From positions 7,114 to 71,113 of the forward strand of contig JAWOIN010000069.1 of NCBI GenBank assembly GCA_046484665.1: a stretch of DNA of 64,000 nt, given 5' to 3'. The position numbers were made by a program, and so were the translations under genes. The notes under the pieces are model-generated. The model worked only from the letters and a program-made list of their open reading frames with translations, was not told the origin of the DNA and ran no database searches. How positions within the stretch are numbered: the first letter of the stretch is position 1; each line of letters begins with the position of its first letter. Shown piece after piece: positions 9,981 through 64,000 of the stretch. This stretch comes from Gemmatimonadota bacterium (GTDB lineage Bacteria > Gemmatimonadota > Gemmatimonadetes > Palauibacterales > Palauibacteraceae).

Positions 9981-10769
9981 ATGATGGACGCGGGAACCTG
10001 CGATCGGTGGTATCAGACGCCGCGCGGCCGGTGGATCGGGCAACGCGAGGTAGCGTTGCTCCTTGGAGAGCTGCAACTTCATCCGGGCGAATCGCTGCTC
10101 GATGTAGCGTGTGGCACCGGCTTCTTCACGCGTGCTCTTGCGTCCGCGATGGGAGCGCCGGTCACCGGCGTCGATATCAGCCCAGAATGCGTGGCGTATG
10201 CGCGTCGTCGAGACACGGACAAGGTGTCCTACGAGGTCGCCGACGCACGTGCCCTGCCTTACGGAGCCGCGAGCTTCGACGTCGTCGTGTCGATCGCGGC
10301 ACTGTGCTTAATCGAAGAGGAACGCGCCGCTGTCCGCGAGATGTGTCGCGTCGCGCGCCGCCGGGTAGCCATCGGTCTACTGAATCGCCGGAGCCTCCTT
10401 TGGCTCCGGAAGGGTAGGAACGGTGGCCGCGGAGGCTACCGCGGTGCTCGCTGGCACACGACCGGCGAGGCCGCGGACCTGCTCAAGGGTCTGCCGGTGC
10501 AGCTTTCTCGGGTGCGGACCGCCATACACCTTCCGGGTGACGGGCGAATCGCGCGGGTCATGGAGCGCCTATGGCCGCCGTGGCTCCACACCGGCGCGTT
10601 CATGCTCGTGGTGGCAGACGTTGCTGCGGTTACCGATGCGCCACCTGACAGCAGCGTGCAGCGGACGGCGCTTCGCGCTGTCGCTGATGCTGAGCGTCAG
10701 GCGGCGTACCTTGAAATGGTACGAGTCCGTATTCGAACCGCGACGACGCTGCCACCCGGGTCAGTGTGA
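9981..10769 (+). CDS. class I SAM-dependent methyltransferase
   Basis: [16 protein letters not shown]...VTGVDIS...FDVVVS motifs I-III. Confidence 0.75.
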
Positions 10770-57066: not shown

Positions 57067-57464
57067 GAGCGAATCGACGGGCGGCGATTCTGGCAGGCGG
57101 AGCCGTGAGTCTCTTCGCGCTGGGGGGCTGCCGGACGGAGCCACCACCGTGGGTGGTGCTGTCGGCGCGACCCCCGGAGTCCGGGGAGCTCATCCAACTC
57201 GTCGGCACGGTGGAGTGGAACGAGCTCGAGGGCGGCTTCTTCGCGATCCGCGCCCGGGACGGCACGACGTATGAGCCGATGAACCTTCCCGACCGCTTTC
57301 AAGTGGACGGCCTACCCGTCGAAGCGGAGGCGATTCTTCGGGGGGAGATGGCCTCGATCCGCATGGTCGGCCCGATCGTGGAGCTCGTGCGGATCCGGGA
57401 GCGTGAGGCCGCGGCGGCCGGTGACGGAGCGCCTGGCGACGCGCCGGACGGTCGAGCGCCGTGA
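57063..57464 (+). CDS. lipoprotein, unknown function
   Basis: Lipobox LGGC. Confidence 0.4.
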   Translation: MRANRRAAILAGGAVSLFALGGCRTEPPPWVVLSARPPESGELIQLVGTVEWNELEGGFFAIRARDGTTYEPMNLPDRFQVDGLPVEAEAILRGEMASIRMVGPIVELVRIREREAAAAGDGAPGDAPDGRAP

Positions 57465-58006
57465 GCGCGTGGCTCGACGGCCGGATCGAGATCCTGCTCG
57501 GCGACATCACGAAGCTCGACGTGGACGTGATCGTGAACGCCGCGAACACGTCCCTGCTCGGAGGGGGCGGCGTGGACGGCGCGATCCACCGCGCCGCCGG
57601 GCCGGAGCTGCTCGAGGAGTGCCGCGCGCTGGGCGGCGCCCGGACGGGCGAGGTGAGGATGACCCGCGGCTACCGACTCCCGGCCCGGTTCGTGGCCCAC
57701 GCTGTGGGTCCGGTCTGGCACGGCGGAGGCCGGGGGGAGCCGGACCTCCTGGCCTCCTGTTACACGAACGCGCTGCGCCTCGCCGACGAGCGCGGGCTCG
57801 AGACCATCGCCTTCCCCTCGATCTCCACGGGAGTCTACGGGTACCCGGTCGAGGCGGCGGCACGCGTCGCCCAGGCGACCGTGCGGGATCACCTCGTTGG
57901 CGGCTCCGGGCTCCGCCGGGTCGGGTTCTGCTGCTTCTCGGAGGAGGACCGGGAGACGTACGAGAGGGTGGCGGCCGAGCTGCTGACGGAGAAGGGGGAG
58001 GAATGA
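57461..58006 (+). CDS. ymdB: macro-domain protein (O-acetyl-ADP-ribose deacetylase, YmdB-like)
   Basis: VIVNAANTSLLGGGGVDGAIHRAAG...TIAFPSISTGVYGYP. Confidence 0.8.
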   Translation: MSAWLDGRIEILLGDITKLDVDVIVNAANTSLLGGGGVDGAIHRAAGPELLEECRALGGARTGEVRMTRGYRLPARFVAHAVGPVWHGGGRGEPDLLASCYTNALRLADERGLETIAFPSISTGVYGYPVEAAARVAQATVRDHLVGGSGLRRVGFCCFSEEDRETYERVAAELLTEKGEE

Positions 58007-58953
58007 GCGTCACGGGGTGGAGACGGGCGCTGCCGTGTCTGGCGATCCTGGCCGCCGCGCCGTGCGGCAGCTGCGCACGGGAGGATGGCGAGCGGTCAGC
58101 GGAGCCGCCCGTGACCGAGCGTCCCGCGCCGGAGCTCGCCACGCGGGTGACGAACGCGTACCCCGCGTACTCCTCCGACGGCGCGTGGATCGCGTACATG
58201 TCGAACGCCGACGGCGATTTCGACATCTACGTCATGAACCTGTCGGAGGGCGTGCGCCGCAAGCTCACGCACGCGCCCGGAAGGGACGGAACACCCGCCT
58301 GGGCCCCGGACGGGACGAAGATCGCCTTCCAGTCGTACCGGGACGGCCCGTCGCAGGTGTACGTGATGAACGCCGACGGCTCGAACCCGCGGAACCTCTC
58401 GAACGGCCCGTGGAACGACGAGCACCCGACCTGGTCGGCGGACGGGACGCGGATTGTGTTCGCCTCGGACCGGCAGGCGTCGGAGGGGGAGGAGGGGAAC
58501 ATCGACCTCTACGAGATGCGCGCGGACGGGACCGACGTGCGACGGATCACGAACACGCCGGAGGTGGAGACCTACCCCTCCTGGTCGCCCGACGGGACGC
58601 GGATCGCCTGCCGGAAGATCCTCCCGGACGGGAACTGGGAGGTCGTCGTGATGGACGCCGACGGCTCCGACCCGGTCGTGATCGCGCCGCACGCGGCGGC
58701 GGACGGCTGGCCCGCCTGGTCGCCTGACGGAGCACGACTCGCCTTCGCGTCGGAGCGCGCCGGCTCTTCGGACCTGTACGTCATCGAGCTGGGGACGGGT
58801 GAGATCCGGCGGGTGACGTTCGACGAGGAGGCCGACGACCGGCAGGCCTGGTGGTCGCCCGACGGGCGGTACCTCGCGTTCAGCCGCTACGTCTGGTTCC
58901 GCGACCAGCCGTTCTTCGAGGCGTCGGAGATCCTGATCACGAGGGCGCCGTGA
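58003..58953 (+). CDS. PD40/TolB-like beta-propeller repeat lipoprotein
   Basis: Repeated P.WSPDG.R.AF.S.R.G....Y motifs (five blades). Confidence 0.75.
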   Translation: MSVTGWRRALPCLAILAAAPCGSCAREDGERSAEPPVTERPAPELATRVTNAYPAYSSDGAWIAYMSNADGDFDIYVMNLSEGVRRKLTHAPGRDGTPAWAPDGTKIAFQSYRDGPSQVYVMNADGSNPRNLSNGPWNDEHPTWSADGTRIVFASDRQASEGEEGNIDLYEMRADGTDVRRITNTPEVETYPSWSPDGTRIACRKILPDGNWEVVVMDADGSDPVVIAPHAAADGWPAWSPDGARLAFASERAGSSDLYVIELGTGEIRRVTFDEEADDRQAWWSPDGRYLAFSRYVWFRDQPFFEASEILITRAP

Positions 58954-59432
58954 GCGCGGTGCCGACCTGGTCGGACGTCCGGAGGCTCGCGCGGGACGGG
59001 AGCCCGGCACCTCCCCGGCGCGTCGAACGGACGGACGCGGAGTGGCGAACCGTTCTGACGCCGGAGCAGTTCCGGATCGCCCGCGGCAGGGGGACCGAGC
59101 GGCCGTTCAGCTCGGAGATGTGCAGCCGGTTCGAGCCGGGCCCGTACGCCTGCGTCTGCTGCGGAACGGTCCTGTTCGACTCGGGCGAGAAGTTCGAGTC
59201 GGGGACGGGGTGGCCGTCCTTCACGCAGCCGGCGAGCCCGGACGTCGTGGCGTATCACGAGGATCGCTCGCTCGGGATCGTCCGGGTCGAGACGACCTGC
59301 AACGTGTGCGATGCGCACCTCGGCCACGTCTTCCCGGACGGCCCGCCGCCGGGCGGGCTGCGTTACTGCATCAACGCTCTCGCGCTCGAGAAGATCGGCG
59401 CGGGGAGCGGTCAGTCCGACGAGCGGATGTAA
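58950..59432 (+). CDS. msrB: peptide-methionine (R)-S-oxide reductase MsrB
   Basis: CVCCG...GTGWPSF...RVETTCNVCDAHLGHVFPDGPPPGGLRYCINALAL. Confidence 0.85.
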   Translation: MSAVPTWSDVRRLARDGSPAPPRRVERTDAEWRTVLTPEQFRIARGRGTERPFSSEMCSRFEPGPYACVCCGTVLFDSGEKFESGTGWPSFTQPASPDVVAYHEDRSLGIVRVETTCNVCDAHLGHVFPDGPPPGGLRYCINALALEKIGAGSGQSDERM

Positions 59433-59846: not shown

Positions 59847-61220
59847 ATGCTCCTCGACACTGGCGCCCCCCGGAAGCTCCCGCTGCGGTGGATTGCGCTG
59901 CTCCTCCTCGGACTGAGCGCGGCCATCGAGCCCCTGCCCGCCCGCGCCCAGGCGCCGTCGCTCGACGCCGGCACCAGGGAGCGAATCGAGGCCGTCGAGC
60001 CTAGCGTGATCGCGTGGCGCCGGGACATCCACGAGCACCCCGAGCTCGGAAACCGGGAAGTCCGCACGGCCGGGCTCGTCGCGGACCATCTCCGCTCGCT
60101 CGGACTCGAAGTCCGTACCGGCGTCGCCCGCACCGGCGTGGTCGGAGTCCTCCACGGCTCCCGACCGGGGCCTGTCGTGCTGCTTCGCGCCGACATGGAC
60201 GCGCTCCCGGTGACCGAGCCGACCGGCCTCCCGTTCGCCTCGACCGTGCGCAGCGAGTACGGCGGAGAGGAGGTGGGCGTGATGCACGCGTGCGGTCACG
60301 ACGCCCACACGGCGATCCTGATGGGCGTGGCCGAGGTGCTGGCGGCAATGAGCGACGACCTGCCGGGGACGGTGAAATTCGTGTTCCAGCCTGCCGAGGA
60401 AGGGCCACCGGCGGGTGAGGACGGCGGGGCCGAGCTGATGGTCCGCGAGGGCATCCTGGACGACCCCGCCGTGGACGTCGCCTTCGCCCTGCACATGGAC
60501 TCGCTCGAACCGGCCGGAGACGTTCTCTACCGTCCGGGCGGCACCTACGCGAGCGCCGACGACTTCCGGATCGTCGTGCGGGGACGCCAGACGCACGGAG
60601 CGTTTCCGTGGGACGGCACGGACCCGATCGTCGCCGCGGCCCACGTCGTTACGGCGCTGCAGTCGATCGTGAGTCGCGAGGTGAACCTGACCGAGACGGC
60701 GGTGGTCGTCTCGATCGGGAGGATCCGGGGGGGCGTGCGCTCGAACATCATCCCGGAGGAGGTGGAGCTGGTCGGGACGATCCGGACGCTCGACCCGGAG
60801 GTACGCGAGCGCCTGCACGAGAGGGTCCGGCGGATCGCGACGAGCGTCGCCGAGGGAATGGGCGCCACAGCCGTTGTGCAGATTCCGATGACCCGCGGGT
60901 ACCCGGCCACGGTGAACGACGCGGACCTCACCGCCCGGATGGTCCCGGCCCTCGAGGCGGCGGTCGGGGCGGAGCGGGTGCGCCTCCGTCCGCCGCTGAT
61001 GGCCGGCGAGGACTTCGCGTTCATCGCCGAGCGTGTCCCGTCGGTCTACATCGGGCTCGGAGGTCGGCCGGCCGGCGTCTCGAGGGCGGACGCGGTCCCG
61101 CACCACGCGCCGGGGTTCTTCCTCGACGAGAGCGGGTTCGGGAACGGGGTGCGGGCGCTCGCTGCGATGGCCCTCGAGACGCTGCGATCCGGCCCGCCCG
61201 TCCCGGGGACGCGCGAATGA
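59847..61220 (+). CDS. M20-family amidohydrolase (M20D peptidase/aminoacylase)
   Basis: GVMHACGHDAHT motif; signal peptide. Confidence 0.8.
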   Translation: MLLDTGAPRKLPLRWIALLLLGLSAAIEPLPARAQAPSLDAGTRERIEAVEPSVIAWRRDIHEHPELGNREVRTAGLVADHLRSLGLEVRTGVARTGVVGVLHGSRPGPVVLLRADMDALPVTEPTGLPFASTVRSEYGGEEVGVMHACGHDAHTAILMGVAEVLAAMSDDLPGTVKFVFQPAEEGPPAGEDGGAELMVREGILDDPAVDVAFALHMDSLEPAGDVLYRPGGTYASADDFRIVVRGRQTHGAFPWDGTDPIVAAAHVVTALQSIVSREVNLTETAVVVSIGRIRGGVRSNIIPEEVELVGTIRTLDPEVRERLHERVRRIATSVAEGMGATAVVQIPMTRGYPATVNDADLTARMVPALEAAVGAERVRLRPPLMAGEDFAFIAERVPSVYIGLGGRPAGVSRADAVPHHAPGFFLDESGFGNGVRALAAMALETLRSGPPVPGTRE

Positions 61221-62896
61221 TGCGATCGCGGGGAAGGTGGGCCCGGTCCGTCCTCCTCGCCGGCATCGTCGGCATCGCGACCGCGTGCGCGCGGGAGGCA
61301 GGCCCGCCCCGGACGGCCGAGGCAGGCGCCGTTTGGCCGTCGGAGCGGATCGAGCGCGTCAACCTCTCGGAGATGTTCGTCGGGATCGACGGCGAGGCGA
61401 CGTTCGTCCTTCTCGAGGGAGAGAGCGGCCGGGTCCGGGTCCACGATCCGGAACGGGCGCGCCGGCGCTTCCCGCCGGCGTCCACCTTCAAGATCCCGAA
61501 CTCCCTGATCGCGCTCGAGACGGGCGTCGCAGACGGACCGGAATTCCCCCTCCCGTTCGACTCGGTCGCGACACCCGCACGGAGCTGGTGGCCGCGGAGC
61601 TGGGCCGGCGACCAGACGATGCGGACCGCGTTCCGGGAGTCCGTGGCCTGGTACTACCAGGAGCTCGCACGGCGCATCGGTCCCGAGCGCATGGCGGAGT
61701 GGGTCGAGCGTCTCGACTACGGGAATCTCGACACCTCCCCGGAGGTGGACCGTTTCTGGCTGGAGGGCAGTCTCCGGATCTCGCCGGAGGAGCAGGTGGA
61801 GTTCCTGCGGCGCCTCTGGGCCGGAGAGCTCCCGGTGTCCGGGCGCACGGCCGCCGTCGTGCGGGAGCTGCTGCGGCTCGAGGAGGGCGACGGCTGGCGG
61901 CTCTCGGGGAAGACCGGAACGGCGGAGCTGACGCCGACCCGGGAGCTGGGCTGGCTGGTCGGTGCCGTCGAGCGCACGGCCGGCGAAGCGGAGTCCGGAA
62001 CCGAGTCCGGCGCCGCGTGGTTCTTCGCCCTCGAGATGGAGGGCGAGCGGGTCTGGGAGGAATGGCCGCCCTCCCGCCGTACTCAGCTCGTGAAGCGGAT
62101 CCTCCGTCGGCTGGCGTCGATCCCGCCGGACCCACCCCCCGGGGCCTCGCGCGGGACGGAGTCGCTCGCGCCTGAGCCGCGCGGCGTGGTCGCGCCGCCC
62201 TTCGTCGCGGCGACCGAGGACGCGCCCGTCGCCTTCGAGCCCCCGACCGCCGATCCGGACCGCTGGCTTCTCGCCTTCCTGGACGTCGAGACCACGGGCC
62301 TCGTTCCCGGCTGGCACGAGATGATCGACCTCGGCCTCGTGATGACGGACCTCGAGGGCGTCCCGGTCGACAGCCTCTTCCTCAGGATCCAGCCGGAGCA
62401 CCCGGAGCGGACCTCGGAGGGCGCCCGGCGGGTCAACGCCTTCGATCCGGCCCGGTGGCGGGAGCTCGGCGCGCTGTCTACGGAGGCCTCCGCGGACAGC
62501 CTCGCCCGCTTCCACCGGCGGGTGGCGGGCGACCGTCCGGTCATGCTCGTCGCCTTCAACAGCTGGTTCGACGCCGCCTTCCTCGACTACCTGTTCCGGG
62601 GGAAGGGCGGCAGCTGGCGCGAGCTCTACCACTACTTCGTGCTGGACATCCCCTCGATGGCCTGGTCGGTGGGATACCGGGGCCTGAACGGCACGGAGCT
62701 GTCGCGGGCGCTCGGCATCCCGGACGAGCCGCACGTGGCCGAACAGCACACCGGACTCACCGGGGCCCGGCTGAACGCGCGGCTGTACCGGGCGCTCCGC
62801 GAGAGACGCCCGCAGGAGACGCGAAGGCGGCGGCATCTTCGCTCTGATCGAAGCGTCTCCGGGGCGGGATGTCCGGCAAGAGGGGCAGACCGGTAA
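61217..62896 (+). CDS. fusion protein: N-terminal class D (OXA-like) beta-lactamase/penicillin-binding domain + C-terminal DEDDh-like 3'-5' exonuclease domain
   Basis: Lipoprotein-type signal; PASTFKIPNSLIALE (STFK), DYGNLD (YGN), SGKTGTA (KTG); then LAFLDVETTGL (exo I), VAFNSWFDAAFLD (exo II), HTGLTGARLNARLY (exo III with Gly where Asp expected); start ATG overlaps upstream stop (ATGA). Confidence 0.7.
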   Translation: MMRSRGRWARSVLLAGIVGIATACAREAGPPRTAEAGAVWPSERIERVNLSEMFVGIDGEATFVLLEGESGRVRVHDPERARRRFPPASTFKIPNSLIALETGVADGPEFPLPFDSVATPARSWWPRSWAGDQTMRTAFRESVAWYYQELARRIGPERMAEWVERLDYGNLDTSPEVDRFWLEGSLRISPEEQVEFLRRLWAGELPVSGRTAAVVRELLRLEEGDGWRLSGKTGTAELTPTRELGWLVGAVERTAGEAESGTESGAAWFFALEMEGERVWEEWPPSRRTQLVKRILRRLASIPPDPPPGASRGTESLAPEPRGVVAPPFVAATEDAPVAFEPPTADPDRWLLAFLDVETTGLVPGWHEMIDLGLVMTDLEGVPVDSLFLRIQPEHPERTSEGARRVNAFDPARWRELGALSTEASADSLARFHRRVAGDRPVMLVAFNSWFDAAFLDYLFRGKGGSWRELYHYFVLDIPSMAWSVGYRGLNGTELSRALGIPDEPHVAEQHTGLTGARLNARLYRALRERRPQETRRRRHLRSDRSVSGAGCPARGADR

Positions 62897-62911: not shown

Positions 62912-64000
62912 TCAGGCGTCCGCCGGCCGACTTGCCTCCTCGATCTCGCCCTCGACCCGCTCCCACTCCGCGAGCCGCTCCTCGAGCTCCGCGGCCAGCG
63001 CTCCCCGTTCCTCCTCGAGGATGCGGATCGCCTCGGGCCCCGCGGACTCGTAGAAGGAAGGGTCCGCGAACACCGCGTCGATCTCAGCGACCCGCGTCTC
63101 GATCCTCGCGATCCTCTCGGTGACGCGGTCCCGTCGTCCGTCCAGCTCGCGCAGCCGCAGCTGGTCGGCTCGGCGGGCGGGGGTCGGTGCCTCGCGCCGC
63201 TCCTCGACTTTCCCGCGCTTCGCTCCGTTCCCCGCTTTCTCCAGGTCAGGTGCGCTGCCCGTGGCCGACGCGCCCCTCTCCCGCCTCGCCCGCAGCACGA
63301 CGGTGTCGATGTCGAGGTGGTCGTCCCCGCAGGCGTGCACGTAGTCCTCGTAGCTCCCCCGGTAGTCGCGGATCCCGTCGGGCCGGATCTCGACGATCCG
63401 GGTCGCGAGCCGGGAAACGAACCAGCGGTCGTGCGACACGAAGAGGAGCGTGCCGTCGAAGTCGGAGAGGCTCTCGACGAGCGCCTCGATCGCCTCGAGG
63501 TCCAGGTGGTTGGTCGGCTCGTCGAGCACGAGCACGTTCGGTTTCTGGATCGCGAGGCGGCAGAACACCAGCCGCGCGGCCTCGCCGCCCGACAGCGCCC
63601 CGAGGCGCTTCTCCGCCTCGTCGCCCGAGAACAGGACGAGTCCGAGCTCGCCCCGCACGAAGCCGGCCGAGGCGCCGGAACAGGAGTCCCAGATCCACTC
63701 GATCGCCGTCCGGTCGGGATCCTCGAACTGCTCGTGGTGGTCCTGCGCGAAGTAGCCGGGGTGCGCTTCGTATCCCCATTTCACGCTCCCCGCATCGGGC
63801 TCGAGGTCGCCGACCGCGATCTTGAGCAGAGTCGACTTCCCGATCCCGTTCGGGCCGAGGATCGCGACCCGGTCGCCCCGGCGGACCTCGAGGTCGACGC
63901 CGTGGAGGACCTCGTTGTCGCCGTACGCCTTCCGGATCCGCGTCAGCGCGAGGACGTCTTTCCCGCTGTGGCGCCGGGGCACGAACCGGAAGGTCGGCCA
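62912..64000 (-). CDS. ABC-F family ATPase (Uup/EttA-like), 5' end beyond window
   Basis: Second ABC domain: GDRVAILGPNGIGKSTLLK (Walker A), LSGGEAARLVFCRLA (signature), VLVLDEPTNHLD (Walker B), C-terminal coiled coil. Confidence 0.8.
   Translation of the reverse strand, partial: WPTFRFVPRRHSGKDVLALTRIRKAYGDNEVLHGVDLEVRRGDRVAILGPNGIGKSTLLKIAVGDLEPDAGSVKWGYEAHPGYFAQDHHEQFEDPDRTAIEWIWDSCSGASAGFVRGELGLVLFSGDEAEKRLGALSGGEAARLVFCRLAIQKPNVLVLDEPTNHLDLEAIEALVESLSDFDGTLLFVSHDRWFVSRLATRIVEIRPDGIRDYRGSYEDYVHACGDDHLDIDTVVLRARRERGASATGSAPDLEKAGNGAKRGKVEERREAPTPARRADQLRLRELDGRRDRVTERIARIETRVAEIDAVFADPSFYESAGPEAIRILEEERGALAAELEERLAEWERVEGEIEEASRPADA

Follow-up and report, generated by a model that had tools for sequence, protein, structure and literature searches.

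An exported class D beta-lactamase-like domain joined in frame to a member of an exonuclease-fold family in Gemmatimonadota

A 64,000-nucleotide stretch of DNA from a Gemmatimonadota bacterium of the Palauibacteraceae (GenBank assembly GCA_046484665.1, contig JAWOIN010000069.1, positions 7,114 to 71,113; hereafter the window) carries a gene for a protein with two enzyme-like halves, the N-terminal one resembling class D (OXA-like) beta-lactamases and the C-terminal one resembling DEDDh exonucleases. The fusion architecture is genuine and rare. Judging from its sequence, the C-terminal module belongs to an uncharacterised exported sister family of the DEDDh exonucleases, and we place high confidence in the architecture and in the assignment to families. 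In the explanation favoured here, this would be one exported protein with two autonomous modules on a flexible linker, which would work separately in the periplasm or at the cell surface, the fusion merely giving them co-export and co-expression. The exonuclease-like module would be an active, metal-dependent 3′-5′ exonuclease or oligonucleotidase that feeds nucleotide and phosphate scavenging. The fusion would have originated in one narrow Gemmatimonadota clade, when an OXA module of about 280 residues was placed in frame, behind the leader and ahead of the mature exonuclease-like domain, in an existing gene coupled to an M20 gene, and it would later have been lost in some close relatives. 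Taken as a whole package, with a probably active scavenging nuclease, independent modules and a cassette origin, this reading lies slightly on the probable side.

The reading frame runs without interruption between its ATG (61217) and its TAA (62894-62896) and encodes 559 residues; no internal stop was present in the linker region when the frame 61217-62896 was translated. The start codon and the TGA with which the upstream M20 gene ends share a 4-base overlap (ATGA). A search with the full-length protein retrieved an identical 559-residue NCBI protein (P0121), from a Gemmatimonadota metagenome-assembled genome (MAG), and four more fused clusters (P0122-P0125) of 498-546 residues and 67-72% identity, from ENA, JGI and Logan assemblies, clusters being drawn at 90% identity. 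The five fused proteins align end to end, and all motifs of both domains are invariant among them. Beyond these five clusters, no other fusion of an OXA-like and an exonuclease-like domain was found among 5.8 billion clustered proteins. The long exonuclease-like open reading frames (ORFs) in GTDB loci included no OXA fusions, most of them being over-extensions of ORFs in DNA of high guanine-plus-cytosine content. No description of a class D-exonuclease fusion was found in the searchable literature, nor in a RefSeq-wide survey of class D homologs from 2022, in which the only fusions given are class D-class C and class D-crotonase (PMC9045261).

A PROSITE-type lipobox pattern matches the N-terminus, MMRSRGRWARSVLLAGIVGIATAC, with Cys24 as the lipobox Cys, and AlphaFold2 predicts a leader helix at residues 7-23. 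The leaders of the fused orthologs are of the Sec type and have no lipobox Cys. The window protein is thus classed by its leader as a putative lipoprotein, and its orthologs as putatively Sec-secreted. A preliminary description of this DNA had already read a single continuous ORF, a start overlapping the M20 stop, and a lipoprotein-type signal. It had recognised a class D-like domain with intact STFK, YGN and KTG motifs and a DnaQ/RNase T-like C-terminal half in which Gly replaces the last catalytic Asp (HTGLTGA), and it had called the architecture unrecognised. All of this agrees with the ORF coordinates, domain matches, alignments and searches reported here.

The N-terminal domain matches the NCBIfam model bla_class_D_main (NF012161) at an E-value of 1.1e-57 and 195.1 bits, under the curated cutoff of 250, and Pfam Transpeptidase at 1.4e-29. 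Its top PDB matches are class D beta-lactamases (6nhs, 2.2e-42). In addition to motifs I and III (Table 1), motif II reads S142-V-A (residues 142-144) in the window protein, S-V-V being its form in the orthologs, and its third residue is non-polar; YGN stands at residues 168-170, and the omega-loop Trp181 lies within FWLEG. As a test of class D membership, motif I, motif II and the YGN, Trp and KTG elements are all present, and the score falls short of the curated cutoff. By its motifs the module is a class D beta-lactamase homolog with a complete set of predicted catalytic motifs. It has, by sequence, the same fold and family as the class D enzymes 6nhs, BAT-2/BSU-2 (YbxI), OXA-2 and OXA-48 (E-values to 2e-42), with which it has in common SxxK, YGN, the omega-loop Trp, KTG and export by a signal peptide. 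Unlike them it has a sub-cutoff score, SVA in place of SxV, a longer loop after GWLVG and the C-terminal exonuclease-fold domain. The NCBI label of the identical protein is only 'penicillin-binding transpeptidase domain-containing protein'.

The BlaR1 sensor 1nrf was also matched by the N-terminal domain (5e-35), and the likeness to BlaR1/MecR1 consists in a class D fold and a second module in one polypeptide. In contrast to BlaR1/MecR1, the window protein is devoid of the 4-transmembrane/M56 protease transducer, and its class D domain is N-terminal, not C-terminal. No M56 or transmembrane transducer domain was detected: Pfam gives only Transpeptidase/Beta-lactamase2 and a weak RNase_T, and there is a single leader helix. 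A non-polar third residue in motif II is a mark of beta-lactamases, not of BlaR sensors (PMC9045261). On the architecture and on this residue, a BlaR-type sensor reading was rejected.

In metagenomes, class D-like domains are also fused to SnoaL-like, TonB-dependent receptor, metallo-beta-lactamase, M28 peptidase and SGNH esterase domains, and to a class A beta-lactamase with DUF6454 (examples of class D fusions are P0129, P0137, P0140, P0155, P0177 and P0213). The diversity of such fusions is far above that in the RefSeq survey (PMC9045261).

On the C-terminal half the Pfam RNase_T model (PF00929) is marginal, with an E-value of 0.29 and 12.1 bits against a gathering threshold of 24, and the exonuclease assignment therefore called for independent support. 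A phmmer search gave a match to PDB 7t2s at 2.7e-7, in which exo I, exo II and exo III are all aligned, and the PADLOC DEDDh model matched the domain at 6.9e-13. The structure 7T2S is that of E. coli Cap18, a CBASS-associated 3′-5′ exonuclease (PMC12345164). HTGLTGA pairs with HDALHDA of Cap18, which puts Gly516 at the position of the exo III Asp; by residue count on the 7t2s alignment this is Asp165 of Cap18. The RNase H-like DnaQ fold, the exo I D-x-E, the exo II Asp and the exo III His are all recognisable, which leaves three of the four carboxylates in place. Since the exo III H-x4-D is absent and the PF00929 threshold is not reached, the domain is not filed as a canonical DEDDh member.

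Of the solved structures, that of Cap18 is nearest to this domain; Cap18 is grouped with related 'Exo' enzymes, which cleave linear dinucleotide intermediates. Cap18 is cytoplasmic and leaderless, has the canonical HDALHDA and lies in an operon of the cyclic oligonucleotide-based antiphage signalling system (CBASS), whereas the window domain is predicted to be exported and has HTGLTGA together with DEP. No CD-NTase or CBASS genes occur in the window or in the orthologous loci, where the neighbours are Macro, MsrB, M20 and ABC-F. A defence-system reading (CBASS/Cas DEDDh) drawn from the Cap18 and PADLOC matches was rejected for want of defence neighbours and because the protein is exported. Compared with RNase T, Pol III epsilon, oligoribonuclease/REXO2, ERI1 and TREX1, the fourth carboxylate is replaced by Gly. 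The canonical DnaQ-like DEDDh enzymes are cytoplasmic or nuclear, whereas this domain would be periplasmic or extracytoplasmic, and its RNase_T score is sub-threshold (12 vs 24 bits).

A search with the C-terminal domain alone yielded 997 proteins. Nearly all are stand-alone proteins of 225-265 residues with their own N-terminal hydrophobic leader, often with a lipobox Cys. HMMER, run exhaustively against 1.84 billion representatives, gave 747 relatives at E <= 1e-3, 28 of them at E <= 1e-30. D-x-E-T-T-G, N-S-x-F-D, D-E-P and H-T-G-x-T-G-A are all invariant in 22 aligned members, and D356, E358, D452 and H511 are invariant from Gemmatimonadota to Bacteroidota. Among the 201 homologs with a complete domain, the canonical H-x4-D was seen in only nine, none of which has a leader. 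The consensus of the leader-bearing clade is HTG[ILVM]TGA, and leaderless relatives of about 180 residues have HRA[IL]NGA and similar motifs. Since the leaderless relatives also have Gly, the substitution would be older than export. One leaderless Gly-type relative is fused to a cytidine deaminase.

When one genome per GTDB species was scanned, 135 loci came to light, all in MAGs, from Gemmatimonadota, Acidobacteriota, Verrucomicrobiota, Bacteroidota, Marinisomatota and Eisenbacteria, and from several gammaproteobacterial orders (Woeseiaceae, Pseudohongiella, Lysobacterales and Pseudomonadales). In the 65 loci with a parsable ORF, a lipobox is present in 30. The preliminary description had placed the exonuclease-like module in the periplasm or outside the cell. 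The export signals agree with this location; it is not due to the fusion, since the stand-alone family is exported itself, with a hydrophobic leader at 63/65 loci. The description had also taken the Gly for a possible catalytic alteration of this protein. The Gly is indeed there; it is not peculiar to the window protein and is a hallmark of the family, found in 190/201 of the complete-domain homologs and at 62/65 loci. Pfam, NCBIfam, PHROGs and PADLOC hold no specific curated model for the family and give generic sub-threshold DnaQ/DEDDh/PolC-exo matches only. No description of an exported DnaQ-like or periplasmic DEDDh nuclease was found in the searchable literature.

The leaderless H-R-A-x-N-G-A proteins of about 180 residues form a broader clade (P0273-P0386; e.g. 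P0299, P0316 and P0324), and the leaderless Gly-type clade matches PHROG 192 'DNA polymerase exonuclease subunit' at an E-value of about 1e-28. The exported exonuclease-like domain also forms the N-terminal part of fusion proteins whose other part is a glyoxalase/VOC, GH43/GH130 glycosidase or HEAT+cyclophilin module (fusions to other enzymes include P0078, P0081, P0082, P0126, P0134 and P0136, and L015:9908-11998). Two MAG records with the domain, L020 and L025, bear the titles 'Klebsiella pneumoniae' and 'Rhodoferax sp.'; the proteins in them are 66-67% identical to the Gemmatimonadota protein, and the bins are probably mislabelled or contaminated.

With respect to the active site, a (D)EP motif lies 7-8 residues upstream of the exo III His. 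An 'EP' motif no more than 14 residues upstream of the His is found in 179/190 Gly-type and 0/9 Asp-type homologs. Among representatives at most 50% identical the corresponding figures are 48/58 and 0/9 (Fisher p = 2e-6). In the AlphaFold2 model D503-E504-P505 is in the loop just ahead of the last helix, which bears the His. Because EP covaries with Gly and the loop adjoins the His helix, Glu504 is proposed as a relocated carboxylate that may supply the missing fourth metal ligand; the evidence for this is suggestive only.

The genes within 6 kb were clustered in 74 species-level loci. A sulfatase-family (alkaline-phosphatase superfamily) neighbour is present in 13 of them, which belong to three phyla (Gammaproteobacteria, Opitutaceae and Bacteroidota). 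A TonB-type outer-membrane barrel and a 5′-nucleotidase were found near the exonuclease-like gene in six loci each. In five loci a leader-bearing adenosine deaminase lies directly upstream and overlaps the start of the gene by 10-31 bases, and in five PhyH lies directly downstream. The operon in gammaproteobacterial MAGs has the order TonB-type outer-membrane protein< sulfatase> exported adenosine deaminase> exonuclease-like protein> PhyH dioxygenase> (L027, L034, L040, L042 and L045). That of Opitutaceae is sulfatase< HIT> exonuclease-like protein>, with the HIT nucleotide hydrolase directly upstream. Permeases for nucleosides and for xanthine/uracil, and a PfkB kinase, are encoded in addition at one locus (L006). 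These neighbours point to exported nucleotide or oligonucleotide catabolism, and to an active enzyme over a dead binding module; together with the cytidine deaminase fusion, they argue for an active enzyme. A family-wide conserved neighbourhood was not found in these loci: the associations hold for subsets, and the Gemmatimonadota context (e.g. L004) has no obvious theme. HAD, 5′-nucleotidase, P450 and MFS genes also occur near the gammaproteobacterial operon (around position 10001).

With known bacterial extracellular or periplasmic nucleases such as EndA/Dns/NucM (beta-beta-alpha-Me), Xds/ExeM (EEP) and staphylococcal Nuc, the window protein would share its proposed role, the breakdown of extracellular nucleic acid to acquire nutrients, and it shares Sec or lipoprotein signals for export. 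In contrast to all of these, its exonuclease-like domain is of an entirely different fold. To our knowledge, the known bacterial extracellular nucleases are all of folds other than DEDDh.

Selection was estimated from the pairwise ratio of nonsynonymous to synonymous substitution rates (dN/dS) between the window gene and two orthologous loci. The values are 0.27-0.35 for the OXA domain, 0.14-0.18 for the exonuclease-like domain, 0.5-0.9 for the linker and 0.6-1.15 for the leader. Both domains are under purifying selection and the linker is near-neutral. The linker also varies in length, being shorter by about 30 residues in P0125. In the full-length AlphaFold model both domains are mostly above 90 in the predicted local distance difference test (pLDDT), and linker residues 311-323 are below 50 and predicted to be disordered. 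The predicted template modelling score (pTM) is 0.58, which with a disordered linker means that no fixed packing between the domains is predicted. The disordered linker, this pTM and the promiscuity of both domain families in fusions support modules that act independently, which we consider quite probable.

The origin of the fusion can be followed in related loci, four of which (L001, L002, L003 and L087; gene orders in Table 1) also have the 4-base start/stop overlap with the upstream gene. In a bootstrapped neighbour-joining tree of the exonuclease-like domain (about 180 residues), the five fused and three stand-alone proteins form one clade with 95% bootstrap support. The window copy is basal in this clade (98% for the remainder), and monophyly of the fused forms was recovered in 0% of replicates. 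The stand-alone P0002 pairs with the fused P0124 at 95%. The stand-alone P0001 and P0002 have the leader of the fused forms (AR..LVAAC.A.LAV..GG.AQ); P0002 keeps 'GDEGAIWP', similar to 'GGDGVVWP' of the mature fused N-termini, and then continues directly with the exonuclease-proximal part of the linker. From the shared locus order, the shared leader and the non-monophyly of the fused forms, it follows that the OXA module is an in-frame presence/absence cassette of about 280 residues between leader and exonuclease-like domain. The most parsimonious history on this tree would be a single gain and, after it, two or more losses. The fusion appears to be young and labile, apparently a recent, reversible accident and not a new integrated mechanism. 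Its lability and the disordered, near-neutral linker argue against tight functional coupling of the halves.

Several points weigh against the explanation favoured here. With a score of 195 against the curated 250 bits, beta-lactamase activity of the N-terminal domain is not assured. Characterised DEDDh enzymes cannot do without the canonical exo III Asp, and for this reason the C-terminal domain could be inactive or of different chemistry. The same follows from the published 'catalytic-dead' mutant of Cap18, which is D165N (bioRxiv 10.1101/2022.01.04.474952). In the Asp-type Cap18, too, the loop that corresponds to that of the EP motif contains a Glu (KPE), which is why the covariation of EP with Gly is only suggestive. 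The nucleotide-scavenging neighbourhood is confined to a minority of loci (13/74 or fewer), and the fusion-bearing Gemmatimonadota clade has no scavenging neighbours; there the gene is accompanied by M20, MsrB, two unknown genes and ABC-F. Finally, the direction of the cassette event depends on a neighbour-joining tree of about 180 residues; the alternatives are a single gain with losses or repeated gains. The chance that the exonuclease-like module is an active nuclease appears to be about even.

If it is not, the module may be catalytically dead and serve as a nucleic-acid- or nucleotide-binding domain, or as a purely structural domain of the periplasm; a binding rather than cleaving function had been suggested in the preliminary description. 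This is unlikely. Known dead DEDDh-like domains lose several catalytic residues, whereas D356, E358, D452 and H511 are invariant here. The Gly is itself near-invariant and co-varies with the EP motif, the dN/dS of the exonuclease-like domain indicates strong purifying selection, and enzymes of nucleotide catabolism are its neighbours in several phyla. All of these disfavour a domain that binds without cleaving.

It is very improbable that the halves are coupled, either as a BlaR-like beta-lactam sensor controlling a nuclease or through a composite substrate on which both would act, for example a nucleoside-linked antibiotic. Coupling would be consistent with the fact that at least five lineages have retained the fusion and that purifying selection acts on both domains, and the class D fold does serve as the sensor of BlaR1. 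Against this, the locus of close relatives has the exonuclease-like domain still, the OXA module having been lost from it in frame, and the linker is disordered, variable in length and nearly neutral. The non-polar third residue of motif II (SVA/SVV) is that of a beta-lactamase and there is no M56/transmembrane transducer. In addition, both domains fuse with many unrelated partners.

That the long ORF is an artefact of a frameshift, misassembly or lost stop joining two genes is scarcely credible and was rejected: the sequence is MAG-derived, has an aberrant 27-residue tail and lacks two downstream genes, and another database protein, P0128, does look like a read-through artefact, but in five clusters of 67-100% identity, which come from assemblies made independently (NCBI, ENA, JGI and Logan), the junction is in frame, with no stop in the linker and no room for a second signal peptide at the junction. 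P0128 (ENA, 374 residues) consists of MsrB and an exonuclease-like domain, and inside it a signal peptide follows a stretch that is apparently out of frame. P0128 seems to result from read-through or a frameshift between neighbouring MsrB and exonuclease-like genes, an adjacency that exists in relatives.

Table 1. Features of the fusion gene and its upstream neighbour in the window, and gene orders at related loci (aa, amino acids; rev, reverse)
Feature	Coordinates	Strand	Basis
M20 peptidase/amidohydrolase gene, exported, upstream, translationally coupled via the 4-base overlap	59847..61220	+	Pfam Peptidase_M20 4.6e-41 and M20_dimer
Fusion protein gene, complete, stop codon included	61217..62896	+	ORF list and translation; identical to P0121
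Leader peptide with lipobox (LAGIVGIATAC, Cys24)	61217..61288	+	PROSITE-type lipobox pattern
Class D (OXA-like) beta-lactamase-like domain, aa ~48-305	61358..62131	+	NCBIfam and PDB matches; pLDDT mostly >90
Motif I S-T-F-K (aa 89-92), predicted nucleophile Ser89, Lys92	61481..61492	+	Read directly; invariant in 5 fused proteins
Motif III K-T-G, aa 232-234	61910..61918	+	Read directly; alignment of fused proteins
Pro-rich interdomain linker, aa ~301-345, with the family PPFVAAxExAPVA pre-domain segment	62117..62251	+	pLDDT, dN/dS, alignment
DEDDh-fold exonuclease-like domain, aa ~346-535	62252..62821	+	
Exo I motif D356-V-E358-T-T-G	62282..62299	+	Invariant in 22-member family alignment and 5-fusion alignment
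Exo II motif N-S-W-F-D452-A-A-F	62558..62581	+	Family and fused-protein alignments
D503-E504-P505, in the loop ahead of the exo III His; inferred candidate for the fourth carboxylate, relocated	62723..62731	+	22/22 sequences
Exo III-equivalent H511-T-G-L-T-G516-A, Gly516 for the canonical Asp	62747..62767	+	Alignment to Cap18 HDALHDA
Arg-rich C-terminal tail, 27 aa (QETRRRRHLRSDRSVSGAGCPARGADR)	62813..62893	+	In no ortholog (alignment of 5 fused proteins)
L001 gene order: Macro-MsrB-M20-[OXA::exo]-250aa-212aa-ABC-F(rev)			
L002 gene order: Macro-223aa-MsrB-[OXA::exo]-250aa-212aa			
L003 gene order: M20-[exo alone, 240 aa]-250aa-212aa			
L087 gene order: upstream ORF-[exo alone]-250aa-212aa			

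At its 3′ end the window gene differs from its orthologs. Residues 551-559 of the tail have pLDDT values below 50. The window copy is without the downstream genes for proteins of 250 and 212 residues that all four loci in Table 1 keep, and it ends 15 bases from a convergent ABC-F gene (62912-63982, minus strand). The tail, the two missing genes and the nearness of ABC-F therefore suggest a local deletion that took the native stop codon and both downstream genes from the window copy. Upstream, MsrB is encoded at 58851-59432. Two ORFs lie upstream of it, one for a PD40/TolB-like beta-propeller with a leader and one for a Macro domain (57403-58953 and 57461-58006). The Macro-MsrB-M20 order of the window is also kept in L001, and Macro and MsrB keep their order in L002 as well.

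For the surveillance of antibiotic resistance, these results would mean that environmental OXA-like modules move as in-frame cassettes into unrelated exported genes, where annotation based on length and cutoffs hides them, as the NCBI label of the present protein illustrates. A more interesting outcome than the fusion lies outside the framing of the preliminary description: a conserved, multi-phylum, signal-peptide-bearing family of the DEDDh fold with Gly for the last catalytic Asp, a co-varying EP motif and, in subsets of loci, nucleotide-scavenging neighbours.

DEDDh exonucleases are textbook cytoplasmic or nuclear enzymes of replication, repair and RNA processing. We tentatively propose, at rather less than an even chance, that the leader-bearing 'DED-Gly-h' proteins are an unrecognised class of periplasmic or cell-surface exonucleases/phosphodiesterases. 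They would have a remodelled active site, in which three canonical carboxylates and the His are kept and the fourth ligand has moved to the conserved (D)EP loop, would harvest nucleotides from extracellular oligonucleotides in at least six phyla, and would have been welded to an OXA module, giving a bifunctional exported protein, in one Gemmatimonadota clade. If true, the rewired active site would show instructively how catalytic residues can migrate within a fold that has been studied very well, and an exported DEDDh clade in many environmental phyla would be a new player in the turnover of extracellular DNA and RNA, and of phosphorus, in sediments and soils.

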